Shown here: piece after piece, positions 1,534 through 54,021 of the stretch | Position numbering within the stretch: the first letter of the stretch is position 1 | How the letters are laid out: each line of letters opens with the position of its first letter | DNA from: a phage | Strand: one strand, 5' to 3' | Length of the DNA stretch: 64,000 nucleotides | Sequence record: PV730300.1 | Notes under the pieces: model-generated | Told to the model about the DNA's origin: nothing | The model's input: only the letters and a program-made list of their open reading frames with translations | Databases searched by the model: none | Program-made: the position numbers and the translations under genes

Positions 1534-1794
1534 TTACTCCGCAATTTGAGCCATGAGATCACGCAGTTCGGTAAAACCGCCTACGTATGTTACCTCCCCG
1601 TTCACTTCAGACAGAATTTGTGGAAATGTGCGTGGAGGAACTCCGGTAAGATCAACAACTGTTTTAGTCATTGATTCTAAATCGTAGTCTTGGTCAAGAC
1701 TTAAATATTCAAACTGTTTATTGCGCATAGTCAATAGTTGTTTTGACATTTCACAAAATTGACAGTTAGGTTTACCAAAAATTACAAATTCCAT
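1534..1794 (-). CDS. glutaredoxin / NrdH-like redoxin
   Basis: 86 aa with CQFC active-site-like motif near the N-terminus; close to the ribonucleotide reductase genes. Confidence 0.6.
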   Translation of the reverse strand: MEFVIFGKPNCQFCEMSKQLLTMRNKQFEYLSLDQDYDLESMTKTVVDLTGVPPRTFPQILSEVNGEVTYVGGFTELRDLMAQIAE

Positions 1795-2636
1795 TACCTC
1801 TCCTTATTAAGTAATACTGCTAAAGACTGTTCAATACCTTTATTTAAATCTGATTTTGTAAGATAGTGACTGGTTACTAGTTGTGACTTCACCGGACGTG
1901 CTGCTGGAGCATTATAGGTTGAAGCTGATACCGCCGATATCTTAACAGGTTCTGGCATCTGTGTCAAGATCTTTTCCGCAAACTCCGCCCAAGAAATAAG
2001 ATGGCTTCCTGCAAAATGGTAAGTCTTAACAGACCTTGACCAACCTGTTTTTAATACTTCAAAAATAGCTTCTGCTAAATCTGGAGCATATGTTGGACAA
2101 GAGAACTGATCAGCAACAATAATAAAATCACGTTGTCCATCATTATAGCGAGACAACATGGTTTTTAGAAAGTTATTTCCAAATTCGCTATATACCGAGG
2201 CTGTTCGAATAATATATGCATTTGGGTTAACTCCTCGCACCATTTTTTCACCAAGTTCTTTCGTATACCCATAATTGTTTATTGGGTTAGGTGTAGTATC
2301 TTCAAAAATAGGATGAGAATAATTAAAAATATAGTCTGTAGAAATATGCACAAAATCAATTTTAAGTTTGCTGCACACTGCCGCAATATTTGCAGGTCCA
2401 TACGCATTAACAGCCAAAGCAGTAGCAAAATCATGTTCTGCTTTATCTACAGCCGTATAAGCAGCGCAGTTAATAACACCGTCTACATAATCTTCAACAA
2501 TAGCGTTTCGCACAGCTTCAAAATTTGTAATATCTACACGTTCTTTAGGATAAATTAAAGATACGTTTGAAGGAACCACTTTACGTAAAGCTTGTCCCAG
2601 TTGTCCATTACCACCCAATACCAGATATGTTAGCAT
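1794..2636 (-). CDS. rmlD: dTDP-4-dehydrorhamnose reductase-like (RmlD family) NAD(P)-dependent reductase
   Basis: N-terminal Rossmann motif LVLGGNGQLG, 280 aa, RmlD-like pattern; overlaps RmlC gene start. Confidence 0.6.
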   Translation of the reverse strand: MLTYLVLGGNGQLGQALRKVVPSNVSLIYPKERVDITNFEAVRNAIVEDYVDGVINCAAYTAVDKAEHDFATALAVNAYGPANIAAVCSKLKIDFVHISTDYIFNYSHPIFEDTTPNPINNYGYTKELGEKMVRGVNPNAYIIRTASVYSEFGNNFLKTMLSRYNDGQRDFIIVADQFSCPTYAPDLAEAIFEVLKTGWSRSVKTYHFAGSHLISWAEFAEKILTQMPEPVKISAVSASTYNAPAARPVKSQLVTSHYLTKSDLNKGIEQSLAVLLNKER

Positions 2637-3196
2637 ACACCCTCACTACGCAACTGTTGAAAAGATTTAGCCATTGCATCTTTTGTTGATAAGATAGGTT
2701 TAAAACCTTCGTCAAAAATCATATCGAAGCCCCAATCGATCCCTATGTCAGGATCATCCCAACGTAAACTTTGTTCGCTAGAAGGGTCGTATGGAGTTGT
2801 GCATTTGTATTCAAAGATAGCGTCCATACTCAAAACTATAAAACCATGTGCCAAACCAGGGGGAAGCCAAAACTGCGTATGGTGTCGTGCACTAAGAACA
2901 ACACCGTCCCAAGCACCGTAAGTTGGACTATCTTTACGTAAATCTACAGCGAAATCCAATACTTCTCCACTTACACAACGAACAAGCTTACCTTGCGGGT
3001 TATTTGTTTGAAAGTGCATTCCTCGCAAAACACCGAAGTTTGATTTAGACATATTATCTTGAACGAAAGTTTGTTTACCAATGATATCTTCGTATTTTTG
3101 TTCATTGTATGTTTCTAAAAAGAAACCACGATCATCTTTATAAACGTCTGGTTTGATAATTACCGCACCTTCAATTTTTGTTTTTTCTACTTTCAT
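2630..3196 (-). CDS. rmlC: dTDP-4-dehydrorhamnose 3,5-epimerase-like cupin (RmlC family)
   Basis: 188 aa; IEGAVIIKPDVYKDDRGFFLE N-terminus and HGF / cupin pattern typical of RmlC. Confidence 0.6.
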   Translation of the reverse strand: MKVEKTKIEGAVIIKPDVYKDDRGFFLETYNEQKYEDIIGKQTFVQDNMSKSNFGVLRGMHFQTNNPQGKLVRCVSGEVLDFAVDLRKDSPTYGAWDGVVLSARHHTQFWLPPGLAHGFIVLSMDAIFEYKCTTPYDPSSEQSLRWDDPDIGIDWGFDMIFDEGFKPILSTKDAMAKSFQQLRSEGVC

Positions 3197-3205
3197 TTTC
3201 TCTCC

Positions 3206-3532
3206 TTACCAGACATGTTGAGAAATAATAGTTTCCGTTTTAATGTTATATTTTTCAAGTAGCTCTGCATAGGCTTCTTTTGCATTCTCATTTACTTTCT
3301 CAAGATCTACAGCTACGCTTCCTTCTCCGCCTTCTAAATAAATACCATATATGCAATAAGACTCATCAGCATCGTAGAAAGGAGAGATGCGACTTAAGTC
3401 AAGACCTTCTTGTAAGAACCAGTTAAAATCTCCGTCAAATTCTTCTTCAATTCTAGGGTCTTCTCCTACAGCCTCTTCCCATTTATTAAAAGGTGCACCC
3501 TGTAACATACGCCATTCGATATCAATACCCAT
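3206..3532 (-). CDS. acidic hypothetical protein
   Basis: ORF with Asp/Glu-rich translation. Confidence 0.4.
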   Translation of the reverse strand: MGIDIEWRMLQGAPFNKWEEAVGEDPRIEEEFDGDFNWFLQEGLDLSRISPFYDADESYCIYGIYLEGGEGSVAVDLEKVNENAKEAYAELLEKYNIKTETIISQHVW

Positions 3533-3707
3533 TTTTCATCTCCTCCTCTTCTTGAGCAGCTTTAATAATTGCTTCATAAATATCGTAAGCAATGCCTCCA
3601 CAACATCTAGCTTCGAAAGCTATTGCTTCTGCAATGTGATCTGTTAATTCTCGTGGAATACGGACATACTCTTTTTCATTCTCCATCTTCCACCTCTTCT
3701 TTTTCAA
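3522..3707 (-). CDS. hypothetical protein (true start probably the internal ATG MENEKEY)
   Basis: ORF; internal ATG overlaps the stop of the upstream zinc-ribbon ORF. Confidence 0.3.
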   Translation of the reverse strand: MKKKRWKMENEKEYVRIPRELTDHIAEAIAFEARCCGGIAYDIYEAIIKAAQEEEEMKNGY

Positions 3708-3822
3708 AGACTACTACTCGTCCCTCACCATGACAATTCAGGCAAGGAAATGTTACCATAATTTCCACTTCCATCTGTCCAGTCCCACCGCACACAGGAC
3801 AAAAAATAAGTTTTTCAGCCAT
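3676..3822 (-). CDS. small zinc-ribbon protein (48 aa)
   Basis: Unlisted ORF MAEKLIFCPVCGGTGQMEVEIMVTFPCLNCHGEG... with two CxxC pairs; AAGGAGG 5 nt upstream. Confidence 0.35.
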   Translation of the reverse strand: MAEKLIFCPVCGGTGQMEVEIMVTFPCLNCHGEGRVVVFEKEEVEDGE

Positions 3823-4031
3823 TATTCCTCCTTAATTATTTCAAACTTGGCAACACCGTTTACAATAATATGACCACAAGACATAACTCCTAGCCAAGGA
3901 TCGCCGTTTTTCTTCGGGCGTTTACCGAATACATCACAAAAACCATTCTTCATTTCGGAGGCTTCATAAGAAGCCCCTTTGTCAAAAACGTCTTTGAATG
4001 TGTCGATTATACCAACACATCTCAAAATCAT
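3822..4031 (-). CDS. hypothetical protein
   Basis: ORF in tight gene array. Confidence 0.35.
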   Translation of the reverse strand: MILRCVGIIDTFKDVFDKGASYEASEMKNGFCDVFGKRPKKNGDPWLGVMSCGHIIVNGVAKFEIIKEE

Positions 4032-5116
4032 TAGAAGTCAAGCTCCTCATCATCAGAGAGATCTTTGTTAGCTGAATTCAATTTGTAATTAGTTAACTGA
4101 ATCTCTTGGGCTGCTGACTGAATCAAATCAGGATTCAACCATTTTTCCATCCAAGCTAAAGGACTATGTTTAGGTGCTTTAAACTTAGCTTTCATTTTCA
4201 ATCGACGATAAATAGGAGCAGCATTGAAATAAACCCACTGTTTAGACAATTCGGCGTTAAGACCTACAATAAAACGACCTTCACTAAACAGGTAGTCACA
4301 CCACTGTTCCTCTTGTTCAACAACAGTGTCGAGGATCAAAGTCAACTCTTCAATATTGTCTTCGTAAATTTTACGCCAAATTGGGTCATGCATCAATGCA
4401 TCAATTACAGCATAATCCATCTTAACATGCAAGATTTCATCTAACATAATTTTCTGGATCAGTTTACAAGCCCCAACAAACAGTTGTTGTTCTGCCATAG
4501 CAAAAGTAGCAGAGAAGGAAGATATAAACTGAATACCTTCTAATCCAATCAGGGCTACCATCCCTTTAAGAATCAGCAGTCGAAGTTCATCGTTAGCTTC
4601 AATCAATCCTAGAGCATACTTATGACCAGCTTCTTCCAACTGACCCATGATATCAGCAATGATACCCATACGATTGAAAATTTTATCATTAATCATAATC
4701 TGATTGATGACTTCGATTGGATCTGGAGTACATTGACGGATTATTTCAGAATACGTTAACGCATGGAGAACTTCCATTTCACTCTGCTTCATCATCATAG
4801 CACAGGCTTCATTGTTACTCAAGAATGGAGAGAACAAAGTGATGATTGATTTTGCAAGAGAATCATTTTCCCATTGGAACGATAAGTTTTTAATCATAAC
4901 ATCATAGTTGTTTTTAGAACAAGCTACGAAATCTTTACGTGTCTGATCCAGATTGACTTCATTCTCATCCCAATCTTGTGCTTTTTGAAGTTTGTAGAGT
5001 TTGTGCATTTCTGGATAAGTTACGTTAACAGAATCAAAGATCCCTAATTGTTCCCCTAAAAATACTGGATATTTTCCTGTTTTGTAAACTTCATTGTGTA
5101 AATTAATTGCTGCCAT
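4031..5116 (-). CDS. nrdB: ribonucleotide reductase class I small (beta) subunit
   Basis: Ferritin-like NrdB pattern (LEGIQFISSFSATFA, DEILHVKMDY); adjacent to nrdA. Confidence 0.8.
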   Translation of the reverse strand: MAAINLHNEVYKTGKYPVFLGEQLGIFDSVNVTYPEMHKLYKLQKAQDWDENEVNLDQTRKDFVACSKNNYDVMIKNLSFQWENDSLAKSIITLFSPFLSNNEACAMMMKQSEMEVLHALTYSEIIRQCTPDPIEVINQIMINDKIFNRMGIIADIMGQLEEAGHKYALGLIEANDELRLLILKGMVALIGLEGIQFISSFSATFAMAEQQLFVGACKLIQKIMLDEILHVKMDYAVIDALMHDPIWRKIYEDNIEELTLILDTVVEQEEQWCDYLFSEGRFIVGLNAELSKQWVYFNAAPIYRRLKMKAKFKAPKHSPLAWMEKWLNPDLIQSAAQEIQLTNYKLNSANKDLSDDEELDF

Positions 5117-5133
5117 TTAAAATTCTCCTCAAT

Positions 5134-5155
5134 AAAAGGGGGCCGAAGCCCCTTT
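5134..5155 (-). terminator. hairpin/attenuator between nrdA and nrdB (minus strand, UUCG tetraloop)
   Basis: Minus-strand RNA reads GGGGC-UUCG-GCCCC followed by CUUUUAUU. Confidence 0.5.
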
Positions 5156-5184
5156 ACGTTTACCCTTCTTCACCTGTTCTCCTA

Positions 5185-7428
5185 CTACATTTTACAGGCA
5201 CTACACCCTTCGTCTTCAGAATCTTCTTGTGCTAAAGAGTCTGCTGATTTTGTTCTACTATTAAGGTAATACAATGACTTGCCACCCAGTCTGGCAAAAT
5301 TCAGAATAAACTGCATCTCAGCTTTCACTGATAAACGTCCACCTACCAATTTAGAATAATCTAGCCAAGAATCACAAGAAATTCCTTGGTCCGTGAACTT
5401 GGTAAAGATACCATACATTTCTGCAAGATCTTTAGCCGGAGTATCCCAGGCGGATTGGTAGAACATTTTCAGTTTTTCGTAGTCTGGAACAATAAATAAT
5501 ACACTACCTTTCTGACTTTGTTTATACATAATAGTATCACGAACAGGATACAGAGAGTTAGTAGTATTGCTTACCAAACTGCTGGACTCATTAGGTGCAA
5601 TAGCAGCCAAGACACTGTTACGGATACCACCTTGTTCAATGATTTCAGCACGTAAGCCTTCCCAGTCCATTTTAAGATCAAAATTACCGATACTATCTAC
5701 TGTTTTAGCATAAGTGTCAATTGGTAGCCAACCTTGAGGCCATTTGGTTTTATCGATCCATTCCGCATTACCTTTTTCCTTAGCCAGACGCAGAGAGGCT
5801 TTTGCCAACCAAAAGTAATGACGTTCTGCAAGTTCATGCATTAATTTTTTAGCATAAGCATCTGAATAATTTACAAAATTGCTTGCCAAGTAATGCGCTA
5901 AGTTTGTAATACCTACACCAATAGATCTACGTGCTTTAGCAGTTATTTCGTTATGTTTAAATGGATAATCCATTGTTTCAATAACGTTGTCAATTGTCAA
6001 TACAGTGTAGTATGCAACATCCTCATATTCTTCAGGTAATACACGACCAGCAACAATAGAAGATAAGAAGCATAAAGCCAATTCTTGATCTTCTGTATTC
6101 TCACCAGTAAAGAGATCCGGCATACTGTGGAAAGCTTTAGTTGGTAAGAAGATCTCTTGACACAGGTTTGATTGATATACCGTATCCAGGAAAGGTGTAT
6201 GGTTGTTAACGTTGTCAGCAAAGAACATGTAAATACGTCCTGTTTCTGCACGTTGAACAATAATCTCTGTCAGAAGATCACGAGCCTTAACAAATTTTTT
6301 CTTAATGCGACGACGGCTTACTTTGTCATAAACTGCATCAAACTCTTCTTCACTTTTATACAAAGCTTCATAAAGTTCAGGAGCATCATCACAACTAACT
6401 AACATCCAGTCTTCGTTTTTTGCTGCTCGACGCAAGAACGAACGGTTAACAACAATAGAATAATCTAGTTTATCCACTCGTTTATCTATAGGTGTTGTTG
6501 GATTCTTCAGTCGAATCAGATCGTCGAAGTCTGGTTCAAGTATGGTAAAGGTAACTGTAGCACTACCTCCACGGCTTGCTTGCTTTGAAGCTCCAACACT
6601 ATCTTCCATCCATTTCAGATACGGAAGAAGACCACCGTGAATAATACGATTATTCTTAACACCTTGACCTGTGGCACGAGTTTGAAGATTAACACCAATA
6701 CCTGCGTTATTCAACGTATACTCATGAGCTAAGTAATTAGCAATGGCTAAAGACTCTGCTGTATCGTCTGCACGGAATAAACAACAAGACGCACTTCCTT
6801 TGATCGGAGTTCGTAGAGTTGTCAGATACGGCGATGGCAGATTAATCTTAAGATCGCTAACATAAGTATAAAGTTTTTTAATATCTTCTATACGGCGTTC
6901 TTTTGGTTGGATCTCCATAACCTTCATTGCGACACCAATGAAAAGAAACTGTGGAGACTCATGCACCACATCGTTTACTGCATCTCGAATAAGATATTTA
7001 TCCACCATTTGACGTAAAACAGAATAACCATAAGTTAGATTTTTATTATGCTTTACAATCTTACCGATTTCTTTGATCTCTTCATCAGTATAATCCATTT
7101 TAGCCCAATGACCACGTTCTACCATATCATGATAAAAGGTATTCAGTGAAGGGATACTGTGGTATCCCCCATGAGCCTGTTTGTAAATCATACCCAGAAG
7201 AAGTCTTCCTGCCATATCACTGTAAGCTTGTGTTTTCTTGTCAATACACGCTGCAATCATTGCTTTATGCAGATCACGTGTAGACACACCGTCATAACAC
7301 CGCTTCACAGCTTCTAATTCAATTTCAGACCAGTTTAGTTTACCTGCTGCAAATTCAGACCACTTGCGAAGTTTTTCTGGGTTAAACTCCTCTGTCTTAC
7401 CATTAGATTTAGTTACAAAACGAATCAA
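5185..7428 (-). CDS. nrdA: ribonucleotide reductase class I large (alpha) subunit
   Basis: 747 aa, NrdA-like, C-terminal Cys pair (CSACKM). Confidence 0.85.
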   Translation of the reverse strand: MIRFVTKSNGKTEEFNPEKLRKWSEFAAGKLNWSEIELEAVKRCYDGVSTRDLHKAMIAACIDKKTQAYSDMAGRLLLGMIYKQAHGGYHSIPSLNTFYHDMVERGHWAKMDYTDEEIKEIGKIVKHNKNLTYGYSVLRQMVDKYLIRDAVNDVVHESPQFLFIGVAMKVMEIQPKERRIEDIKKLYTYVSDLKINLPSPYLTTLRTPIKGSASCCLFRADDTAESLAIANYLAHEYTLNNAGIGVNLQTRATGQGVKNNRIIHGGLLPYLKWMEDSVGASKQASRGGSATVTFTILEPDFDDLIRLKNPTTPIDKRVDKLDYSIVVNRSFLRRAAKNEDWMLVSCDDAPELYEALYKSEEEFDAVYDKVSRRRIKKKFVKARDLLTEIIVQRAETGRIYMFFADNVNNHTPFLDTVYQSNLCQEIFLPTKAFHSMPDLFTGENTEDQELALCFLSSIVAGRVLPEEYEDVAYYTVLTIDNVIETMDYPFKHNEITAKARRSIGVGITNLAHYLASNFVNYSDAYAKKLMHELAERHYFWLAKASLRLAKEKGNAEWIDKTKWPQGWLPIDTYAKTVDSIGNFDLKMDWEGLRAEIIEQGGIRNSVLAAIAPNESSSLVSNTTNSLYPVRDTIMYKQSQKGSVLFIVPDYEKLKMFYQSAWDTPAKDLAEMYGIFTKFTDQGISCDSWLDYSKLVGGRLSVKAEMQFILNFARLGGKSLYYLNSRTKSADSLAQEDSEDEGCSACKM

Positions 7429-8204: not shown

Positions 8205-9203
8205 TCACCATTTAGTATGATTTGTTAAAAGTTGACGATGTTGAATCCAGCCTTTGAAATTGCCAGACCAAAACTTACCATTACGATCTACATGGGTAAT
8301 ACCTGGTTCCCAAGAGTTAAAATCCCAAGGAGCATTGATAAACAAATCTTCAAAACAGTTCTCTCCATATTGTTCGCATGTTTCTTGCATTGGAGTGGCT
8401 TGATGTTCAAACGGAGAAGCATGAACCTTGCGCCCAGTCAGCAAACGACCATAGATATCTAAAGCTTTATCTTTAGTTGCATTCAAACGACGATAGCTAA
8501 CCTGTGCACAACACGAAGCTGAAATAGCTTTGGCTTCTTCCAAAGTAAGCACAACAACTTCTCCAGATTCATCTTGAACGTAGTATCCACCAAAAACAAA
8601 ATGATCGTCACCTTCTGTGCCAATATTATCATAGAAATGGTCTACATAAGGTGTGTGCCATTGCCCTGGTTTCAGCACCTCTGGTGTAGATTCTTCATAC
8701 TCTTTGTGCATATCTTTAGCCAAAGCTTCGATAGTAGGATCGGCTTCTTTGTCATCACGTAGCCACCAGAAATTTTCATATTCTGTTGCTGTCAGAACTG
8801 TTTTAATTCGTTGGAAAGGTTCTAGAAGACGGTTTGCAACTTGTTTGTGGTACCCTGCCAAAGAGAATTCTTCTGCAAAACGTGCTGCACTAAGCGCGGC
8901 AAGATCCCACCACTCTTGAGCAGTATAACCTGCATCAATAAGAGCGTCATGATCAACACCTTTATCCTGCATACCAGGTTGGTTAGCCCCAAAACGATAA
9001 GGACGAGCAGGTTGATTTCGCACCATTTCAATCAGTGTTTTAACAGGTATAGCACGGCTAGAAGCAGCATTACGACTGAACAGGCGGTGAGTCATCAATT
9101 CTGAATGAATAATACGTGGATATTCTAGTTCAAAAGTTACAATCTCTTTTCCGTCTTCAGTGATGGAATGCGCAATAATACTAGCCGAAATCTGTTTTGT
9201 CAT
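8205..9203 (-). CDS. thyX: flavin-dependent thymidylate synthase (ThyX-like)
   Basis: ThyX N-terminal pattern including HRLFSRNAASSR (RHR-x7-S-like signature). Confidence 0.65.
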   Translation of the reverse strand: MTKQISASIIAHSITEDGKEIVTFELEYPRIIHSELMTHRLFSRNAASSRAIPVKTLIEMVRNQPARPYRFGANQPGMQDKGVDHDALIDAGYTAQEWWDLAALSAARFAEEFSLAGYHKQVANRLLEPFQRIKTVLTATEYENFWWLRDDKEADPTIEALAKDMHKEYEESTPEVLKPGQWHTPYVDHFYDNIGTEGDDHFVFGGYYVQDESGEVVVLTLEEAKAISASCCAQVSYRRLNATKDKALDIYGRLLTGRKVHASPFEHQATPMQETCEQYGENCFEDLFINAPWDFNSWEPGITHVDRNGKFWSGNFKGWIQHRQLLTNHTKW

Positions 9204-9212: not shown

Positions 9213-9821
9213 TTAGTTTTTAAAATTGTTCAAAGTGTTAAAAACATCCAAACATGTTAGCCACTGATCTTCTAAACCTGTGATCACAACATTTGGTTTT
9301 TTCTTTAGTTCTTCTAGATGGTTATCTTTATAAGGCGTATTAAAATATATTTTAACCACTTCATCTGGAAAATATAGTAGGTTATCAGCCCTGTCATCTA
9401 TTGCTATATCACAAGGCAATAAGTATTTTTCTTTCGTAGCAAAAAAGCCGTTACCAGATCCTTTGCTAAAATCAATCGTATCTAACGTTCTTAAAACATG
9501 CTTATGTTTAGAACTTAAGTGACCACCTTTTGTCACACTTGCGATCAAAAGATTGCTACCTTTCCTTGAAACATACTTTAAGAAATCCGGCATACCTGGA
9601 ACAAAACCCATTGTATCATAGAGATGAGGATTATCCAGAAATCCGTAAGGATCTATATTGAACTCCTCCCTGAAACCAGGAAAGTAGTTGGTAAGATCAT
9701 AGTCTGCATTTTTTGTGAATGTGTCTATCTTAACACCAAGTCCACTAATCTTATTCAACCATTCTAACCAAGCAACATCTAATGGAGCCACAACTAAATC
9801 CCAATCACATACTATCTGCAT
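9213..9821 (-). CDS. HAD-like phosphatase, possible 5'(3')-deoxyribonucleotidase
   Basis: N-terminal DxD-type motif (CDWDLVV); nucleotide-metabolism neighbourhood. Confidence 0.35.
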   Translation of the reverse strand: MQIVCDWDLVVAPLDVAWLEWLNKISGLGVKIDTFTKNADYDLTNYFPGFREEFNIDPYGFLDNPHLYDTMGFVPGMPDFLKYVSRKGSNLLIASVTKGGHLSSKHKHVLRTLDTIDFSKGSGNGFFATKEKYLLPCDIAIDDRADNLLYFPDEVVKIYFNTPYKDNHLEELKKKPNVVITGLEDQWLTCLDVFNTLNNFKN

Positions 9822-17600: not shown

Positions 17601-18005
17601 TTATTGAAGTTTAAGTGAACCACGAAGACGTTTCTCTTGCTGATCACGGATATATTGTGGAACCTCGTGAATTGAATCATTACCGTGCCTATTTTCAACA
17701 ACTAAAGAGATAACTTGATAACCAAACTCTTCAGCAAGAGCTAGGTAAGGTTTAAGTTCTTTCTCTGTGGTTGAAGTATTAGAAACAATAATCTTGTTAA
17801 GATTAGATGCCATAGCATCACGAACAATACCCTGACACCATGCGTGTGCTTTACCTACATTTTCTGGCTTCCAATCGTAAACACCACTTTCTGTGTAATG
17901 ATATTGATCTGCCTCACAGATAGGCCAATAACCTTCAGAAATAATTTCTGCTACTGTAGATTTACCAGCACCTGAAACGCCACGTAAAATGATAAGTTGT
18001 TTCAT
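17601..18005 (-). CDS. P-loop kinase, putative polynucleotide 5'-kinase
   Basis: Walker A GVSGAGKST in a 134-aa protein; adjacent to RNA ligase and phosphoesterase genes. Confidence 0.5.
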   Translation of the reverse strand: MKQLIILRGVSGAGKSTVAEIISEGYWPICEADQYHYTESGVYDWKPENVGKAHAWCQGIVRDAMASNLNKIIVSNTSTTEKELKPYLALAEEFGYQVISLVVENRHGNDSIHEVPQYIRDQQEKRLRGSLKLQ

Positions 18006-18938
18006 TTATCCTCCAAAAAAGTTTTCGATTTTTTCACGTCGCTCTTGCTGATTTAAAGCAGCCCATTGAGTCTTCGTAAAATTATTTCGAATCCATTCTA
18101 ACAAAGCGTAATATTCTTCGTCAACCATTTGCTTGGCATTTTTTGGATTATCCCAAATCAGATCCCACTTTTTATCTCCACCACGCATAAGAAACTTCTT
18201 AGTAAGATAGTGTGGTGATTTAATTTTTAAAAGTAAGTTGAACGGATAGTTTGTTTCACGAACTACAAACCCTTCGTGTTTACAATGTTTAGACATTTCA
18301 ACCACATCTGAAAATTTAATCATCGGATAAACTTCAGGACGTTTAAATTTTGTAATAGATGCAATCCCATCAAGCACACCTTCAGGTAACATAAAACTTG
18401 TCCCATCAGGATTTTGAATTCTGGCACCAATTAAGTATGCACCTGGTTCTTCTTCGACAATATGCGGATCAGAAGGATCACAGATTTCAAACAGGAAAGT
18501 TGCTTTTGCACTCTCTGCCCATTTGATGAAATGTTCTATGTCATCGCACTCTGAAACAATATGATTCTTTGCAATACTTGCAAAATCTGATTCAAGGCTT
18601 CCTGTTGTCGATACAATAAGTTGACCTTTATATACACCTACAGAGGCCATAAAACCATTTACTTTACGAACCACATCTACAAGTTCATCCGCTGGTAGAT
18701 CTGTGCCATTCTCAAAACGATTAAAAATCTTAGTGAAAGGCCAAATAACAACATTGTCATCAGCATCAACAACGATTCCGCGACATTCTAGAAGACGAGA
18801 ATCAATGCTCCATAAGTTATCCCAGAAAACTTTGTTCTTATACTTAAGAACAGATAGACCAGAATACTCTCCTTCTTTATATGTTTTCTTATGAACTAAA
18901 CCTTTTTCAACCAAATCGTCGCAATTAAATTTAGTCAC
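18006..18938 (-). CDS. RNA ligase-like covalent nucleotidyltransferase
   Basis: Motif I KVNGF (KxNG), motif IV EGFVVR, motif V LLKIKS in the correct order. Confidence 0.6.
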   Translation of the reverse strand: MTKFNCDDLVEKGLVHKKTYKEGEYSGLSVLKYKNKVFWDNLWSIDSRLLECRGIVVDADDNVVIWPFTKIFNRFENGTDLPADELVDVVRKVNGFMASVGVYKGQLIVSTTGSLESDFASIAKNHIVSECDDIEHFIKWAESAKATFLFEICDPSDPHIVEEEPGAYLIGARIQNPDGTSFMLPEGVLDGIASITKFKRPEVYPMIKFSDVVEMSKHCKHEGFVVRETNYPFNLLLKIKSPHYLTKKFLMRGGDKKWDLIWDNPKNAKQMVDEEYYALLEWIRNNFTKTQWAALNQQERREKIENFFGG

Positions 18939-18939
18939 A

Positions 18940-19491
18940 TTACTCTCCTTTGATTATTTTGTGATGGTCTACAGTCACGATATCTCGTTTACTCATCATA
19001 GAAATTATCTCATCAAAATGCAAGATTTTTCCGTGTGCATCCCAACCCACATCTAACATTTTACCATAAGCTTCATCAGGGAAAGATCCGTGGGAATGCC
19101 CGTGTAGCATGATTGATCCACGACCTTGTTTATTCCAGGAGGCTATAGGGTAATGGCTTAAGACGAAGAACAGCTTCTGATATTTCACTTCGTCATAATA
19201 CACCACTTCTCCATACTCTGCAAGCACTTCTCGGTGTTTGCTGTAGTCATGGTTCCCAACACAGTAGGTGATATCTCCTTGGAGACGGGAAGCAATTTTA
19301 CGGGTATCTTCTTCAGTTCCGAAACAGAAGTCGCCCAAATGCCACATCTTAACACCAGGAGTAGTAGCACATTTGTTCCATGCTTCGATCAAGGCTTCTG
19401 TCATGTGGTCCATATCTTCCCACGGACGATATTCAGGAGCAAACTCTCGAATACGTTTATGCATAAAATGCAAATCGCTTGTAATAAACAT
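18940..19491 (-). CDS. calcineurin-like metallophosphoesterase
   Basis: DLHF, GDFCFG, GNHD, LHGHSHG metallophosphoesterase signature blocks. Confidence 0.7.
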   Translation of the reverse strand: MFITSDLHFMHKRIREFAPEYRPWEDMDHMTEALIEAWNKCATTPGVKMWHLGDFCFGTEEDTRKIASRLQGDITYCVGNHDYSKHREVLAEYGEVVYYDEVKYQKLFFVLSHYPIASWNKQGRGSIMLHGHSHGSFPDEAYGKMLDVGWDAHGKILHFDEIISMMSKRDIVTVDHHKIIKGE

Positions 19492-19847
19492 TAGTATAAT
19501 CCCTCGCTAAATAATTCATGGTCGTGACCATTACGCTCATGGTCGATCTGGTCAGCATTTTCCGCGATGATGTAAGCATCCGCACGACTCCACCAATTGT
19601 AATACTGATCGATAAAGCCTTGATTATCTGGTGTGCACAAAGTTTTGTTGATTACACCTGCTTCTTTCAACACGTTTAACTGTGCATATAGTACAGGATT
19701 TGCATGTCGAACACAAGGAATAATTAATTCTTCACCATTATTCAAAATATACTTATTCGCAGCACAGACGATAACACGTTGCGCATAATGGCCCTCACCA
19801 ATCCAGGTGAGAGGTTGGTAACAAATGTTCTGATCAATACTACTCAT
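19491..19847 (-). CDS. hypothetical protein
   Basis: ORF. Confidence 0.4.
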   Translation of the reverse strand: MSSIDQNICYQPLTWIGEGHYAQRVIVCAANKYILNNGEELIIPCVRHANPVLYAQLNVLKEAGVINKTLCTPDNQGFIDQYYNWWSRADAYIIAENADQIDHERNGHDHELFSEGLY

Positions 19848-19858
19848 TAAATTTCTCC

Positions 19859-20215
19859 TTAATAGTGAACACGAATCATTTTAATACCATAACGCAGCAT
19901 GGATTCTTTTGCAAGCATGAATTTATCCCCAGCGGCGGGATTAGAAGTATGCACGAAAATGGTAGGTGAACCAAAGCAAGGTTTACCAAACGCCAGAAGT
20001 TCTTCCAAACGCAAGAAAACATCATACCCGTCTTGATCAGAATCTTCACCCAAATCGTTGTCAAAATGCCACTCGTCTACAAAACGATAACCCTTCTGCA
20101 CCTCATTCATGTAACGAGAGGCAAGAAGTTCCTGTGAGGTTTTAAACCAGATTGCATCTGGACAACCATAATCTTTTGGATCACGTAAATCATCAAGCCA
20201 AATAATAGTACCCAT
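19859..20215 (-). CDS. hypothetical protein
   Basis: ORF. Confidence 0.4.
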   Translation of the reverse strand: MGTIIWLDDLRDPKDYGCPDAIWFKTSQELLASRYMNEVQKGYRFVDEWHFDNDLGEDSDQDGYDVFLRLEELLAFGKPCFGSPTIFVHTSNPAAGDKFMLAKESMLRYGIKMIRVHY

Positions 20216-23969: not shown

Positions 23970-24044
23970 GGCCCTGTAGCTCAATGGGAGAGCTGTCGGC
24001 TCATAACCGATAGGTAGCTGGATCGAAACCAGCCAGGGCCACCA
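23970..24044 (+). tRNA. tRNA-Met (anticodon CAT)
   Basis: Manual cloverleaf: acceptor GGCCCTG/CAGGGCC, anticodon loop CTCATAA, CCA encoded. Confidence 0.7.
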
Positions 24045-24046
24045 AC

Positions 24047-24121
24047 GTCTTTATGGTGTAATGGATAGCACAGGAGTCTTCTAAACTCTTAGTCAAGGTT
24101 CGATTCCTTGTAAAGACACCA
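24047..24121 (+). tRNA. tRNA-Arg (anticodon TCT)
   Basis: Acceptor GTCTTTA/TAAAGAC, anticodon loop CTTCTAA, T arm CAAGG-TTCGATT-CCTTG. Confidence 0.65.
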
Positions 24122-24122
24122 G

Positions 24123-24306
24123 AACATTTTAACATGAATTAGCTCAAGTGATTTGAACCCACTACTGATCATGGTGGCAGAGAATGAGGCAAGTATGTCA
24201 GACATTATAAACAAAGGCCACGGTTATATTAGAAGACATAAATGCTCGAAGAGCACCGTTCGTTGAGAACGGGGGTTGGTGGAGTCACCATTCATGGTAA
24301 AATGTT
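24123..24306 (+). ncRNA. candidate structured small RNA 2
   Basis: 16-nt terminal helix AACATTTTAACATGAA (24123-24138) / TTCATGGTAAAATGTT (24291-24306), 15 of 16 paired, enclosing several hairpins. Confidence 0.35.
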
Positions 24307-24317
24307 TTAAAAAACTA

Positions 24318-24347
24318 TTGACAACTAACATTATTTTATGTTAGATT
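24318..24347 (+). promoter_or_regulatory. sigma70-like promoter (internal to the tRNA cluster)
   Basis: AAACTATTGACA at 24318-24323, 17 nt, TGTTAGATT-type -10. Confidence 0.45.
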
Positions 24348-24355
24348 ATAAGTAT

Positions 24356-24446
24356 GGAAGGGCAAATCGACGTGGCGACGAAAACGGTCTTGAAAACCGC
24401 CGAGCTTGAAAGAGCCTTGGGAGTTCGACTCTCCCTCCTTCCGCCA
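24356..24446 (+). tRNA. tRNA-Ser (anticodon TGA), class II
   Basis: Acceptor GGAAGGG/TCCTTCC, anticodon loop CTTGAAA, long variable arm, CCA encoded. Confidence 0.7.
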
Positions 24447-24451
24447 GATTA

Positions 24452-24537
24452 GGTAGATTGGTGAAATGGTAGCCACGACAGTTTGCTAAACTGTAGTCGG
24501 AAACGGCGTGTAGGTTCGAGTCCTACATCTACCGCCA
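24452..24537 (+). tRNA. tRNA-Ser (anticodon GCT), class II
   Basis: Acceptor GGTAGAT/ATCTACC, anticodon loop TTGCTAA, long variable arm. Confidence 0.7.
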
Positions 24538-24667
24538 AGTTCTTTTTAATATAGCTTACTTTAATAGAGTAAACTTTCGGCAGATGGCCCCCACCATCTT
24601 ACCGATAACTCATAGTTAGTGGTGTGAACACTGGCTATTTTAAAAAGAATTTAAATATTAGTATTTA

Positions 24668-24755
24668 GGTGAGTTAATTCCGTAGGGGTAGCGGGGCAGA
24701 CTGTAAATCTGTTATCATTGCGATTCGGGTGGTTCGACTCCATCACTCACCACCA
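24668..24755 (+). tRNA. tRNA-Tyr (anticodon GTA), class II
   Basis: Acceptor GGTGAGT/ACTCACC, anticodon loop CTGTAAA. Confidence 0.7.
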
Positions 24756-24761
24756 AATTAA

Positions 24762-24847
24762 GATGAGTTGGCTGAATGGTTTAAGCGGCGGACTGTTAAT
24801 CCGTGTTCGAAAGAACGATATAGGTTCAAATCCTATACTCATCGCCA
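24762..24847 (+). tRNA. class II tRNA, isotype uncertain (anticodon loop reads CTGTTAA, i.e. GTT)
   Basis: Acceptor GATGAGT/ACTCATC, T arm ATAGG-TTCAAAT-CCTAT, about 15-nt variable arm; anticodon assignment ambiguous by hand. Confidence 0.45.
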
Positions 24848-24937
24848 GAATTATGGACTTGTAGAGTTAAGGTAAACCCCCAGTCGCCAAGAGGCTTCTG
24901 AAATTGCAGGTATCGAATCCTGCCGAGTCCCAGCTTT

Positions 24938-25012
24938 GCTCCTATAGTATAATGGCTATTACAACGGTTTTGTAATCCGTGGATCTCTGTTCGATTCAGA
25001 GTGGGAGCACCA
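24938..25012 (+). tRNA. tRNA-Thr (anticodon TGT)
   Basis: Acceptor GCTCCTA/TGGGAGC, anticodon loop TTTGTAA, T arm CTCTG-TTCGATT-CAGAG. Confidence 0.6.
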
Positions 25013-25287
25013 ACACAACATTAAGAGCACTGTGATTGATCGTCGTATCCTGTGCACAAGGTCTGTTCGAAAGACAGTGTTCTTAGTATTGTGTTGATCA
25101 CACAAAAAGAGTTACCTGAAACTTGACCGGAGTAGGGTTGGATGGGGCAAAAGAAGAAGCGGCTCTCCCATCGACAGCAACGAAGAATAATATTTGACTT
25201 TGGTTTTGTATTATTTTAAGTTAGCTTACCGAACGTAGGGCTAGTCACCCAATGGGATACTCGTCACTGTCCCACTCAATAAAACTA

Positions 25288-25317
25288 TTGACAACCAATA
25301 GTAAAATGTAGTATAGT
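25288..25317 (+). promoter_or_regulatory. sigma70-like promoter (internal to the tRNA cluster)
   Basis: AAACTATTGACA at 25288-25293, about 18 nt, TATAGT. Confidence 0.45.
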
Positions 25318-25328
25318 AAAGATGTAGG

Positions 25329-25403
25329 GCGTTCTTGGTGTAGCGGTAGCATTCCGTCCTTCCAAGTCGGCGGCACGAGTTCGATCCTCGTAGAACGCTC
25401 CAA
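25329..25403 (+). tRNA. tRNA-Gly (anticodon TCC)
   Basis: Acceptor GCGTTCT/AGAACGC, anticodon loop CTTCCAA, T arm ACGAG-TTCGATC-CTCGT. Confidence 0.7.
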
Positions 25404-25500
25404 ATTATTTAATAAAGGGTTGCCAGAAAACTTTCTCTTTTACTCATGGTTTTCTCCTTCTCTCACACCTCTTCTGGTTGCCCTTCATTAAATGATTTAT

Positions 25501-25576
25501 TGGTTTGTAGTGTAGTCCGGTAGCACACGACACTTTGACTGTCGTAGGTTTGGTTCAAATCCAGACAGACCAGCCA
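25501..25576 (+). tRNA. tRNA-Gln (anticodon TTG)
   Basis: Anticodon stem CGACA/TGTCG, loop CTTTGAC, T loop TTCAAAT. Confidence 0.7.
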
Positions 25577-25581
25577 TATAA

Positions 25582-25658
25582 CGGAATTTAGCTCAGTTTG
25601 GTAGAGCATACGCTTTGGGAGCGTAGGGTCGCAGGTTCGAATCCTGCAATTCCGACCA
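25582..25658 (+). tRNA. tRNA-Pro (anticodon TGG)
   Basis: Acceptor CGGAATT/AATTCCG, D stem GCTC/GAGC, anticodon loop TTTGGGA, T arm CGCAGG-TTCGAAT-CCTGC. Confidence 0.8.
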
Positions 25659-25664
25659 ATTTAA

Positions 25665-25738
25665 TGTTTCGTAGTTCAATGGTAGAACCCACGACTGATA
25701 ATCGTGAGACACAAGTTCGATTCTTGTCGAAACAACCA
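25665..25738 (+). tRNA. tRNA-Ile (anticodon GAT)
   Basis: Acceptor TGTTTCG/CGAAACA, anticodon stem CACGA/TCGTG, loop CTGATAA. Confidence 0.75.
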
Positions 25739-25740
25739 GT

Positions 25741-25810
25741 TTCCCGTTAGACTTACAGGATAAGAGTTCCACAGCTTATTGTGATGCTGGTTCGAATCCA
25801 GCACGGGATA
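25741..25810 (+). tRNA. putative tRNA, anticodon not assignable by hand
   Basis: Canonical T arm GCTGG-TTCGAAT-CCAGC and pairing acceptor ends, but no clean anticodon arm could be folded. Confidence 0.3.
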
Positions 25811-25816
25811 CCTAAT

Positions 25817-25895
25817 AGCGGGATAGAGGAGTCTGGTCGTCCTCGCCAGTTTCATATGCTGGAGATCATCGGTTCGAATCCGATTCCCGCCTCCA
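25817..25895 (+). tRNA. tRNA-Met (anticodon CAT), possibly initiator-like or Ile2-type
   Basis: Anticodon loop TTCATAT, T arm ATCGG-TTCGAAT-CCGAT, A1-C72 mismatch at the top of the acceptor stem. Confidence 0.6.
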
Positions 25896-39564: not shown

Positions 39565-39593
39565 TTGACTTTAAAACGTCACGGTGGTATACT
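39565..39593 (+). promoter_or_regulatory. sigma70-like promoter (TTGACT-N17-TGgTATACT) upstream of the endonuclease ORF
   Basis: TTGACT at 39565-39570, TATACT at 39588-39593. Confidence 0.5.
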
Positions 39594-39620
39594 TCTTTTA
39601 TTGAATAGAGGAGGAACATC

Positions 39621-40937
39621 ATGCGTGGCGTTTTAAATATTATAGGTCAAGACCCAAACAATCCAGACAAAATTCTGGTTACATGCTCTATCTGTTCAGA
39701 AGATAAAGAACTTTATCCTCAACCTTTCAGCATGTTCAAAAGTAACTTTGGTAGGCAAACACCTTGTGGTTGCTCAAAATGTCCAAAACTAAGTGAAGAT
39801 CAAGCCTACATTGTAGCAAAGAGAGCTACAGAAGCTTTAGGATACACTTTTTTAGGTTGGAGTAAAGAATACACAGGCTCAAGTTCTACAAAAATCCGTT
39901 GTGTTTGTCCTGAACATGGGGAATGGAACACTGGTATAATTTCAACGATTCGGAAGGGTGTGGGTTGTCCAAAGTGTGTAGATCCTAGGAAAAGAAAAGA
40001 TTTAGTAAAAGCTGAAGATTTCTTGGCAACAGGCTTCTTTGAAGATGGGACTACTTTTACCAAATCTGAAAGAAAAGATAAAAATGGTTGGAGTCCTTAT
40101 TGGTTTGTTACCTGCCCTACATGTTCAAATGATAAGTTTGTAAAAGCTGGACTTTGCTCTGGTATCTTTGAAGGCATGAAGTCTAATCTTTTGAAGGGTG
40201 CTAAACCTTGTCGTTGTTCTTCAAGGTATGTATACACTGAAGAGCAATATATTTTACGAATTAACACTGAAACACCTTATAGCTTTATTCGTTGGATTGG
40301 GAAGTTTAAAGGTAATCGCTCAAAAGTTGTAGTTTTTTGCGAAGAACATGGCGGTGAGATAGAGATGACTGTTTTTGGTTTGTTATCGGGAAACCGTTGT
40401 ATTACTTGTCACGGACACAAACCGAAACCAGAGACTGACATGAAAGAACAATTGAAAAAGGTTTGTGAGGAACGTGGATACACTTTTGTAAAGCTTATTG
40501 ATTACAAATCAAATAAGAGTTCTTTTCAATACTCTTGCAAAACCCACGGCATCCAACAAATATCAATCACAAACTTTATACACGGTGAACAAGGTTGTCC
40601 AGAATGTAGAGGTAAAAATCAGACCTATGCTTATATTCACCTGGTGGAAGATGAGGGTCTTGGTATTATTGGTCTTAAATTTGGAATAACAAAAAATCCA
40701 AGAATAAGAATAAGGCAACAGAATCGACTTGCTAAATATAAACTACGCAAGTTTAAGTTATATAGATTTGAAACTGTGGCAGCTTGTCGCACCGCAGAGA
40801 AAGAAGTGAAAGACGTTTTACCTTGCGGAGTTTTCTCCCAACAAGACATTCCAGACGGGTGGACAGAGACAACTTATATCTACAACCTGGAAAACATTAT
40901 GAAAATCTTTGAAGATAATGGAGGAATACTTTGTTAG
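39621..40937 (+). CDS. homing endonuclease-like protein: five tandem Cys-rich zinc-ribbon repeats plus C-terminal T5orf172 / GIY-YIG-like domain
   Basis: Repeated Cys-pair zinc-ribbon modules (e.g. CPEHG...CPKC, CEEHG...CITC, CKTHG...CPEC); C-terminal YIHLVEDEGLGIIGLKFGIT...R...Q pattern; own ribosome-binding site (GAGGAGG); lies directly 5' of the intron core. Confidence 0.5.
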   Translation: MRGVLNIIGQDPNNPDKILVTCSICSEDKELYPQPFSMFKSNFGRQTPCGCSKCPKLSEDQAYIVAKRATEALGYTFLGWSKEYTGSSSTKIRCVCPEHGEWNTGIISTIRKGVGCPKCVDPRKRKDLVKAEDFLATGFFEDGTTFTKSERKDKNGWSPYWFVTCPTCSNDKFVKAGLCSGIFEGMKSNLLKGAKPCRCSSRYVYTEEQYILRINTETPYSFIRWIGKFKGNRSKVVVFCEEHGGEIEMTVFGLLSGNRCITCHGHKPKPETDMKEQLKKVCEERGYTFVKLIDYKSNKSSFQYSCKTHGIQQISITNFIHGEQGCPECRGKNQTYAYIHLVEDEGLGIIGLKFGITKNPRIRIRQQNRLAKYKLRKFKLYRFETVAACRTAEKEVKDVLPCGVFSQQDIPDGWTETTYIYNLENIMKIFEDNGGILC

Positions 40938-40994
40938 AAATTAACGCCTTAACTTAGGGGCTAATGTGTAGTGATACACATTATCAACTTTGTG

Positions 40995-41185
40995 AATTGC
41001 TGGGACACCCTTAGAGCCACACTACCACTGCGAATCGAAAGATGAAGCCACGGTTTGAAAAGTGTGTGGATTGGGTAATCAGCAGCCAAGCTCCGTTTAG
41101 GAGAAGGTTCAACGACTATCCCGTAAGGGAGTAGGATCAAGTGGTCCGAAGCGCAAAGCGTCTCATGTAGATGAAGATATAGTCT
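40995..41185 (+). ncRNA. group I intron catalytic core (P, Q, R, S elements)
   Basis: P-like AATTGCTGGGAC (40995-41006), Q AATCAGCAGC (41077-41086), R GTTCAACGACTA (41107-41118), S AAGATATAGTCT (41174-41185), in canonical order, with GACTAT/ATAGTC able to form P7. Confidence 0.7.
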
Positions 41186-41264
41186 AATCTGTAGGGAAAC
41201 TTACAGCAGCGAAAGCGGGGAAGAATTAACGAATCTTCCCGAATACAATGCAAAAATTAGTAAC

Positions 41265-43220: not shown

Positions 43221-43226
43221 TAAAAT

Positions 43227-43250
43227 ACCTCGCTTCGGCGGGGTTTTTTC
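43227..43250 (+). terminator. intrinsic terminator (UUCG tetraloop)
   Basis: ACCTCGC-TTCG-GCGGGGT hairpin followed by TTTTTT. Confidence 0.7.
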
Positions 43251-43257
43251 GTTTCCC

Positions 43258-43287
43258 TTGACACGAAGTTTCTATATGTGTTACAAT
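43258..43287 (+). promoter_or_regulatory. sigma70-like promoter (TTGACA-N18-TACAAT)
   Basis: TTGACA at 43258-43263. Confidence 0.45.
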
Positions 43288-43346
43288 AATCAATATGGGA
43301 AGATCTTGCATCTTCCTTTTGGCATTATCATTACTACGAGGTTATC

Positions 43347-44054
43347 ATGGCAGCAATGACTCCACAACAGTCGGTGAGAGCCGTCTATAAGGCAGAACAG
43401 GAAATCAACTCTACCGAGAATAAAAATACCTCGGCATCTACCGTAAAGGGTGATAATGGTTTCTGTATTTTAGCAAGTGTTTATAATAGTTCAAGCGATC
43501 AATACATTCAAAACTTTAAAGCAATTACTTTCGATTCAGTCCCTGAAATAGGTGTAACTCGTGAAGCAGATGTTACAAGTTTTCCTGTGGAATCAGGATC
43601 GGATGTAAGTGACCACGTTCAAATAAAAAACAACAGATTTAAACTTTCAGGTATAATTACCGAAACACCAATTCGGCTTATGCGAGATCAATTATACAGT
43701 GCAGGTGTAAATGGGGCAAGGATTTCTCAAGCAATAGAATATCTAGATCAAATATTTGAGTCAAGACAACCAATAGTTCTTTTGACAGAACACAGAACTT
43801 TTGAAAATGTTATTCTCAAAGGCTACTCTTATGATTATAAATCTGAATTTGCTATGCAATTTGATTTAGAGTTCGAACAAATCCGTCTAGTCTCTAAGGC
43901 CACCACTAACGCTATCGCTGTAAAAACAGCACCAAATAAGTCAACTGGTGGTGATGTGAAAGGACAAGTTCCATCTGGCGGTCCTAAAGTGGATAACCCA
44001 ATTACAAGAAACACTGCGTCATCTACTGGAACACCAACTAATACGGGGAATTAA
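43347..44054 (+). CDS. baseplate/tail protein (putative)
   Basis: Position in the tail module. Confidence 0.35.
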   Translation: MAAMTPQQSVRAVYKAEQEINSTENKNTSASTVKGDNGFCILASVYNSSSDQYIQNFKAITFDSVPEIGVTREADVTSFPVESGSDVSDHVQIKNNRFKLSGIITETPIRLMRDQLYSAGVNGARISQAIEYLDQIFESRQPIVLLTEHRTFENVILKGYSYDYKSEFAMQFDLEFEQIRLVSKATTNAIAVKTAPNKSTGGDVKGQVPSGGPKVDNPITRNTASSTGTPTNTGN

Positions 44055-44056
44055 TA

Positions 44057-44470
44057 ATGGCAACATATTCTAAGACAACCCGATCTACAAGCAACTCTGG
44101 TTATAGTGCAGTATATTTAGAAGATCATTCAACATACTTTGCGTGGTATTTGAAAACAGAGGAATATCCAGATCAAACTTATACGGTAACTTTAGATGGG
44201 GTTGATTACGACATTCGTTTAAGGTGGAACACTAGGGACGAGTCTTGGCAATGTCAAATAGGGCTGTCTGGAGACGATCCAAGTATTACTTTTAAAGTTA
44301 CAAATGGTTTAGATCTTCTTAAACCTTATAAATATCTTGAAAGTGTGCCAGATGGTCAATTATATATAGTAGATACAGTCAAGATTAATGGTCGTCCTGG
44401 GTATACAACTACAGGTCGAGATAAACGTTTTGTATTGGTTTATATTGATAACAAACCTAATCAGGCGTAA
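44057..44470 (+). CDS. baseplate/tail protein (putative)
   Basis: Position in the tail module. Confidence 0.35.
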   Translation: MATYSKTTRSTSNSGYSAVYLEDHSTYFAWYLKTEEYPDQTYTVTLDGVDYDIRLRWNTRDESWQCQIGLSGDDPSITFKVTNGLDLLKPYKYLESVPDGQLYIVDTVKINGRPGYTTTGRDKRFVLVYIDNKPNQA

Positions 44471-44479
44471 GGAGATAAT

Positions 44480-54012: not shown

Positions 54013-54021
54013 TAATACATT

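Follow-up and report, generated by a model that had tools for sequence, protein, structure and literature searches.

A phage-borne rmlC–rmlD pair in a Phapecoctavirus coliphage as the remnant of a four-gene rml operon

Gene content of the locus and identity of the encoded enzymes

The window, i.e., the whole analyzed stretch of 64,000 nucleotides from phage sequence record PV730300.1, represents a virulent, phAPEC8-like coliphage of the genus Phapecoctavirus, subfamily Stephanstirmvirinae. Its first 8 kb show 99.1% identity to Klebsiella phage ZCKP1, dozens of Escherichia phages from the same genus reach at least 98%, and the window as a whole corresponds to positions 14,456–79,285 of ZCKP1. 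A first-pass annotation, made from the sequence without database searches, had proposed two overlapping genes encoding an RmlD-like NAD(P)-dependent reductase with a GGNGQLG motif and an RmlC-like cupin epimerase, surrounded by lysozyme, glutaredoxin and ribonucleotide reductase genes. The boundaries and the overlap of both reading frames were reproduced exactly, and all of these neighbors, together with a gene for PhoH, were found. The features of the locus are listed below in the order of their coordinates.

75–884, neighbor gene encoding PhoH
850–869, next terminator-like hairpin, located after the lysozyme gene
871–1371, neighbor gene encoding a T4-type lysozyme
1534–1794, minus strand, glutaredoxin gene (PF00462, E = 1.8e-9); its start codon overlaps the rmlD stop codon
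1794–2636, minus strand, rmlD, predicted dTDP-4-dehydrorhamnose reductase of 280 aa (family models and motifs)
2630–3196, minus strand, rmlC, predicted dTDP-4-dehydrorhamnose 3,5-epimerase of 188 aa (family models and catalytic residues)
3197–3205, minus strand, intergenic spacer GGAGAGAAA of 9 nt, rmlC Shine-Dalgarno sequence and scar of the rmlB-rmlA deletion
3206–3532, minus strand, conserved hypothetical gene of 108 aa (phrog_15453), directly upstream of rmlC
4031–5116, minus strand, nrdB (open reading frame and annotation of relatives)
5152–5139, minus strand, terminator-like hairpin just upstream of nrdB
5185–7428, neighbor gene nrdA

The rmlC and rmlD genes overlap by 7 nt (ATGCTAA). 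The rmlD stop and the glutaredoxin start codon share the motif TAATG, an arrangement suggestive of translational coupling. As judged from the positions of the two hairpins, rmlC and rmlD appear to be located in a single transcription unit, of which nrdB is probably the first gene.

The 188-aa protein matched the equivalog model TIGR01221 with 226.8 bits (curated cut-off 155.75) and PF00908 with 226.3 bits (E = 2.4e-67, cut-off 27), and the solved structures nearest to it are all RmlC enzymes, e.g., 1dzr (E = 1.7e-56). In alignments with E. coli K-12 RfbC and with solved RmlC structures, H61 (in GMHFQ), K70 (QGKLVR), Y130 (EYKC) and D173 (STKD) fall on the same catalytic residues; the catalytic set of the Salmonella enterica enzyme is H63, K73, Y133 and D170. 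The protein is identical to the RmlC of phage ESCO5 at 187 of 188 positions and features a serine at position 102, where all 17 genomes compared encode an arginine. The encoded protein is a genuine RmlC by these characteristics and is predicted to catalyze the C3/C5 epimerization of dTDP-4-keto-6-deoxy-D-glucose.

Regarding the 280-aa protein, the score against TIGR01214 (238.2 bits) exceeds the curated equivalog cut-off of 224.05 by a narrow margin, and PF04321 was matched with 247 bits (E = 2.6e-73, cut-off 27). The nearest solved structures are the RmlD enzymes 3sc6 (E = 3.7e-44), 1vl0 and 1kbz. The dinucleotide-binding GxxGxxG motif reads GGNGQLG (residues 8–14), and the catalytic residues typical of short-chain dehydrogenases/reductases (SDR), namely T100 (in STDY) as well as Y122 and K126 of the YxxxK motif (YGYTK), are aligned with those of 3sc6 and K-12 RfbD. 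In comparison to the ESCO5 protein, 278 of 280 residues are identical. With 118.1 bits, the protein remained below the cut-off of 308 for the enterobacterial RfbD model NF007440/PRK09987. Accordance of family models and motifs identifies the product as an RmlD of another subtype than the host RfbD. Since the E-values are so low, chance family matches can be excluded for both proteins, and the family assignments proposed before were thus confirmed by profile searches.

The phage proteins have enzyme families and catalytic residues in common with the bacterial dTDP-L-rhamnose pathway as encoded by the K-12 rfb genes and rffG/rffH. However, the order of the phage rml genes is unlike that of K-12, and they reside in a nucleotide-metabolism unit instead of an O-antigen cluster. 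Identities to the K-12 proteins are 51% for RmlC (RfbC) and 33% for RmlD (RfbD), and amount to 63–64% for RmlA and 52–53% for RmlB of related phages. Because of these low values, and because RmlD falls below the NF007440 cut-off, the phage genes do not represent a recent capture from E. coli.

Four-gene relatives and the deletion of rmlB and rmlA

Genes for RmlA and RmlB, the enzymes for the first two steps of the pathway, had been reported missing by the first-pass annotation. In line with this, tblastn searches with ESCO5 RmlA and RmlB as queries revealed no homologs of these enzymes in the 64-kb window, the sole match being RmlD itself (26% identity to RmlB), and neither enzyme is present in the full annotation of ZCKP1, the closest genome.

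The locus was compared across 20 GenBank loci. The slot is filled by rmlB-rmlA-rmlC-rmlD in ESCO5, tuntematon, phAPEC8, ukendt, ESCO13 and others, and the same four genes occupy the same place in the divergent Phapecoctavirus phages phiWec179 and phiWec188 as well as in phi92 of the sister genus Justusliebigvirus. In these four-gene relatives, the 108-aa gene (phrog_15453) directly precedes rmlB. Since three divergent lineages carry the four genes in one slot, the operon rmlB-rmlA-rmlC-rmlD is ancestral to the Stephanstirmvirinae. The operon of phAPEC8, ESCO5, tuntematon and phi92 resembles the window in its slot, which extends from the small open reading frames on the nrdB side to the glutaredoxin gene, and in the order of rmlC and rmlD, whereas it possesses the rmlB and rmlA genes, both of which are absent from the window. 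An architecture and a junction identical to those of the window were found in the rmlCD-only phages ZCKP1, ESCO37, nepoznato, anhysbys, Mt1B1_P17, WPEC1, SF1-1, ECO340P1 and ECML-183-2, essentially leaving RmlC S102 as the sole difference. Furthermore, a scan of IMG/VR with RmlC retrieved two related loci.

The rml locus is mosaic among Phapecoctavirus members. RmlB and RmlA of phiWec179 are 94–97% identical to those of ESCO5, and RmlC and RmlD only approximately 65%; therefore, the boundary between rmlA and rmlC represents a recurrent recombination point.

The rmlCD block was detected in 71 phage records at an identity of at least 95%, and the rmlBA block in 48 records, approximately 41 of which contain it in full length at this identity; hence, about 28 records are rmlCD-only. 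The rmlCD-only genomes were not among the 48 records holding the rmlBA block.

The junction of the window, TAA-GGAGAGAAA-ATG, is identical in 10/10 rmlCD-only sequences examined. In the four-gene phages phAPEC8 and tuntematon, TAAGGAGAACTGATG is located upstream of rmlB and GCGGAGAGAAAATG at the 3' end of rmlA. In these two genomes, GGAGA is present at both deletion ends, and a single copy is left in rmlCD-only genomes; the rmlA end reads GGAGG in ESCO5, ESCO13 and 3A1_SA_NWU. The junction and its flanking repeats thus indicate a deletion of 1,876 bp between 5-nt direct repeats, namely the Shine-Dalgarno motifs of rmlB and rmlC. The deletion between these GGAGA repeats removed rmlB together with rmlA and left rmlC with a ribosome-binding site at the correct spacing. 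In phage DIJ07P2, a separate deletion of approximately 800 bp eliminated roughly 240 residues from the start of RmlA and 24 from the end of RmlB, so that rmlA is destroyed and rmlB clipped, with rmlCD remaining intact. This event is a second loss, independent of the 1,876-bp deletion. An insertion of rmlBA instead of a deletion was rejected based on the presence of the four genes in the same slot of three divergent lineages and on the repeat-flanked junction.

Host supply of the substrate and selection on the remaining genes

In E. coli K-12, the O-antigen cluster contains rfbB-rfbD-rfbA-rfbC, and the enterobacterial common antigen (ECA) cluster contains rffG-rffH adjoining wecE, the product of which consumes dTDP-4-keto-6-deoxy-D-glucose. 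Among 5,426 complete E. coli genomes, rffG-rffH was present in 5,309 (98%), and rfbC was detectable in 2,348, where the resulting share of approximately 43% is a lower bound limited by the sensitivity of blastn. The host thus nearly always supplies the substrate of RmlC and often lacks the last two steps, which makes the loss of rmlBA tolerable.

Based on these frequencies and on the history of the locus, we regard it as probable, albeit far from certain, that RmlC and RmlD constitute a functional remnant which completes dTDP-L-rhamnose synthesis from a host-derived intermediate, probably for four phage glycosyltransferases. In such a pathway, host RfbA/RffH and RfbB/RffG would provide dTDP-4-keto-6-deoxy-D-glucose, the obligatory ECA precursor. 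The phage RmlC, acting as 3,5-epimerase, and RmlD, acting as NAD(P)H-dependent 4-reductase, would then convert this host intermediate to dTDP-L-rhamnose, a product that many E. coli strains presumably cannot make themselves.

Alternatively, the pair may act as a metabolic sink. A pull on dTDP-4-keto-6-deoxyglucose would starve the synthesis of ECA and of some O-antigens, with superinfection exclusion and fewer progeny lost on debris as the possible surface effect, or the dTDP-L-rhamnose formed would inhibit host RmlA-type enzymes by feedback and thereby spare dTTP for DNA replication. RmlA is allosterically inhibited by dTDP-L-rhamnose. Moreover, the K-12 locus implies that RmlC competes with WecE for one substrate of the ECA pathway, and rmlCD is apparently co-transcribed with nrdAB, the glutaredoxin gene (grx), thyX and nucleotidase genes, both of which fit a sink. 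However, the RmlA and RmlB enzymes of the four-gene relatives would restore the pool of the intermediate at the expense of dTTP, and the four phage glycosyltransferases suggest that the sugar is used and not merely accumulated. A sink is therefore considered improbable.

A further alternative is that rmlCD, as a leftover in phages without rmlBA, has lost its function but has not had time to decay. Half of the pathway was lost, and the single junction common to all rmlCD-only genomes is compatible with one, possibly recent, event. However, the full 1,403-bp rmlCD block is kept at an identity of at least 97.6% in all of the approximately 28 rmlCD-only records listed, and these phages were obtained from many countries and hosts. 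Both genes are intact in 18/18 genomes examined, and none of the 10 rmlCD-only sequences examined contains a stop codon or frameshift. Within the rmlCD-only genomes, dN/dS values according to Nei and Gojobori were 0.031 for rmlC and 0.123 for rmlD, in comparison to 0.018 and 0.097, respectively, in four-gene genomes. At the same time, dS of rmlC is sizeable in the rmlCD-only group (approximately 0.10), and low ratios at such divergence argue against drift of a dead gene pair. Codon variants private to the rmlCD-only genomes comprised 11 synonymous and 3 nonsynonymous changes in rmlC (approximately 1:4 under neutrality), and 15 and 9, respectively, in rmlD (approximately 1:3.4 under neutrality). 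The three private nonsynonymous variants of rmlC, compared to none in the four-gene genomes, are in line with decay. The low dN/dS values and the ratios of private variants show that the constraint on rmlCD persists without rmlBA: purifying selection continues, with at most a slight relaxation in rmlC. Part of the constraint signal on rmlCD could come from four-gene genomes since these phages recombine, as documented for an ESCO5 × ESCO37 recombinant (PMC10269720). The correctly spaced ribosome-binding site that survived the deletion and the independent DIJ07P2 deletion, which again spared rmlCD, likewise speak against a leftover, and this explanation is rated as quite unlikely.

Completion of a host nucleotide-sugar pathway had been one of two functions suggested by the first-pass annotation. 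This suggestion is favored by the frequency of rffG-rffH among host genomes and by the purifying selection on rmlCD, and the first-pass interpretation as a whole is supported in part. The surface modification or superinfection exclusion connected with it in that annotation is speculative. The other suggestion, namely DNA modification, is addressed below.

Candidate glycosyltransferases and the fate of the sugar

A search for glycosyltransferases in the remainder of the genome, as recommended for the locus in the first-pass annotation, was answered by ZCKP1, the closest full genome, which encodes four adjacent enzymes of this type (gp134–gp137) at 91.5–94.7 kb, outside the window. The cluster is flanked by a primase/helicase gene and a gene for a SleB-like hydrolase, and genes encoding a Dam methylase and DNA polymerase are also located beside it. 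The four proteins comprise two GT-B paralogs (42% identical to each other), one GT-A-like protein and one member of a phage-only glycosyltransferase phrog; transmembrane segments were predicted in none of them. In case of a functional rmlCD remnant, dTDP-L-rhamnose would most probably serve as the donor for these four soluble enzymes, encoded approximately 75 kb away, and their acceptor would more likely be a protein or glycan than DNA. The phage distributions of gp136 (approximately 127 records) and RmlC (132 records) are alike, but since the rml genes and the cluster go back to a single shared ancestry, their co-occurrence speaks only weakly for a functional connection. Furthermore, the glycosyltransferase module is kept in distant metagenomic relatives.

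The sequences of gp134, gp136 and gp137 showed no meaningful match to solved structures. The AlphaFold model of gp136 (pLDDT 87) adopts a GT-A fold, and the structures nearest to it are GlfT2, polypeptide GalNAc-T1, K4CP, TarP, the dTDP-rhamnose-dependent RmlT of Listeria and SpsA in its dTDP-bound form. These neighbors utilize many different sugar donors; a glycan or protein acceptor would fit the modeled fold.

Virus-encoded sugar-nucleotide pathways and glycosyltransferases that serve capsid glycosylation occur in chloroviruses and in mimivirus. Virion glycosylation involving viral glycosyltransferases is also a feature of the mycobacteriophages Che8, Corndog and Myrna. Homologs of gp136 were recorded in approximately 330 mycobacteriophage records by tblastn. 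A link to the virion glycosylation of Che8 is not claimed since direct BLASTP comparisons were non-significant (gp136 with gp109 and gp110, gp134 with gp108, and gp137 with gp110; all E >= 0.1).

Glycosylation of phage DNA or nucleotides by means of dTDP-rhamnose, comparable to the hypermodification of T4, was also considered. Rhamnose on hydroxymethylated nucleotides was put forward as a speculation by Olsen et al. in 2020 (PMC7552041), and the idea also appears in PMC10844046. It accords with the position of the rml genes in a nucleotide-metabolism module and of the glycosyltransferase cluster next to the primase/helicase, DNA polymerase and Dam methylase genes. Weak local matches connect gp136 to the TET-associated glycosyltransferase family PF20691 (19.4 bits, cut-off 27.5) and to a phrog of beta-glucosyl-HMC alpha-glucosyltransferases (7.6e-6). 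However, these matches span residues 32–70 only, i.e., the generic DXD region of GT-A enzymes, and none of the structures nearest to the gp136 model is a DNA glycosyltransferase, all being GT-A enzymes that act on glycans, teichoic acids or proteins. Moreover, no dCMP/dUMP hydroxymethylase or TET/JBP enzyme was found among the nucleotide-metabolism genes of the window or in the ZCKP1 annotation, and the sole thymidylate-synthase-like protein is of a divergent ThyX type (PF02511, 33.9 bits). In the BASEL study (PMC8594841), phi92-like relatives, which share the rml and glycosyltransferase genes, were described as 'exceptionally susceptible' to restriction-modification, and restriction sensitivity is also covered in PMC10844046. 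Given the ThyX-only gene content, the lack of hydroxymethylase and TET/JBP genes, the restriction-sensitive relatives and the fold of gp136, the DNA-modification option of the first-pass annotation is disfavored, and such a use of the sugar is deemed very unlikely.

Regarding previous knowledge, PMC7552041 drew attention to a complete rhamnose pathway in these phages in 2020, and PMC10269720 stated in 2023 that ESCO37 lacks RmlA and RmlB. Most related Phapecoctavirus records already annotate both genes as RmlC and RmlD. The pair is real and probably functional, yet both genes already carry their annotation in dozens of public records. The literature on these phages reports no Rml activity, dTDP-rhamnose measurement or rhamnosylated product, and for Stephanstirmvirinae, the publications retrieved on what phage rml genes do, on rhamnosylated DNA or on glycosylated virions contain speculation only. 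This study adds a mechanism for the deletion, a further loss that occurred independently, the continued constraint on rmlCD, a quantified argument for complementation by the host, and a likely consumer of the sugar, namely the glycosyltransferase cluster.

Combining these elements, a scenario of low probability can be formulated in which RmlC, RmlD and the four soluble glycosyltransferases perform cytoplasmic rhamnosylation of a virion protein, a host protein or nucleic acid, with the rmlCD-only variants drawing on the ECA precursor pool. If true, rmlCD-only phages would also deplete the ECA glycan, which is a reported target of Vequintavirinae and phi92-like phages. Phages that naturally carry four, two or only part of these genes, combined with rfb and rff mutants of the host, represent a ready genetic system for studying the dependence on the ECA pool and the targets of glycosylation. 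Phapecoctavirus-type coliphages are widespread candidates for phage therapy, and if their virion proteins are rhamnosylated, this would have a bearing on the immunogenicity and host range of therapeutic phages.

Mosaic rml operons and related records

Mosaic rml operons were found in phages phiWec179 and phiWec188 (3602-6877 of the respective locus extracts, L007/L008) and in Pseudomonas phage PsgM04F (OR584014.1). In these operons rmlBA is of the phAPEC8 type, as reflected by amino-acid identities of the phiWec phages to ESCO5 of 90-94% for RmlB and 97% for RmlA, and by a nucleotide identity of 93.7% for rmlBA of PsgM04F. The attached rmlC and rmlD genes are only approximately 65% identical. 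The recombination breakpoint is located at the rmlA/rmlC boundary and coincides with the position of the rmlB-rmlA deletion in the window.

Moreover, RmlC of the window (2630-3196, minus strand) carries Ser at residue 102, as opposed to Arg in all 17 Phapecoctavirus genomes compared. Since bacterial RmlC features Ser at the matching position (LSA motif), Ser102 appears to restore the consensus residue of the family.

Campylobacter phage B15 and Acinetobacter phage ABPW7 matched across the 8-kb query at 98% identity or more, while Dompiswa phage TSP7_1 and PsgM04F reached 97.5-99.4% and 93.7%, respectively, over the rml blocks. Because these four records closely match the coliphages considered here, their host labels may be unreliable.

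Furthermore, relatives encode four soluble glycosyltransferases in a conserved cluster (ZCKP1 gp134-137, 41511-44655 of extract L023; also in extracts L029 and L030), for which no solved homologs were found by sequence. The cluster is bordered by a SleB-like hydrolase gene on one side and a primase/helicase gene on the other; in relatives, genes of a tellurite-resistance-like set (TerC, TelA, TerD, TerF) flank it.

Nucleotide- and RNA-metabolism genes

The following features were recorded in the window:

5152..5139, terminator-like hairpin within the nrdB-nrdA spacer
8205-9203, minus strand, ThyX-like protein of 332 aa ('thymidylate synthase'; PF02511)
9213-9821, NT5C-like deoxynucleotidase, following the ThyX-like gene
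17601-20215, minus strand, four ORFs, candidate RNA-repair module
23970-25895, plus strand, 10 tRNA genes (Met x2, Arg, Ser, Asn, Thr, Gly, Gln, Pro, Ile)

The ThyX-like protein is long and, judging from its PF02511 match of only 33.9 bits covering the C-terminal two-thirds of the profile, very divergent. The spacer between nrdB and nrdA comprises only 68 nt (5117-5184), whereas one or two additional ORFs are present there in ZCKP1 (L003 6104-6650), ESCO5 (L001 7985-9035) and phi92 (L025 272-928), with phi92 carrying an HNH endonuclease at this site. The site therefore appears to be polymorphic for the presence of an insert of the homing-endonuclease type.

The four ORFs at 17601-20215 encode a P-loop kinase-like protein (AAA_33), a putative RNA ligase (annotated as such in ZCKP1), a metallophosphoesterase and a protein with a cyclic-phosphate-processing receiver domain (PF20274), and possibly constitute an RNA-repair module. 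The tRNA cluster explains the GC-rich, ORF-poor character of its stretch.

Tail and tail-fibre region

Within this region, 39566-41253 and 52539-54094 showed no megablast match to ZCKP1. The former represents approximately 1.7 kb additional in the window, and in the latter approximately 1.5 kb replaces approximately 2.9 kb of ZCKP1. Both differences probably represent exchanges of receptor-binding-protein cassettes.
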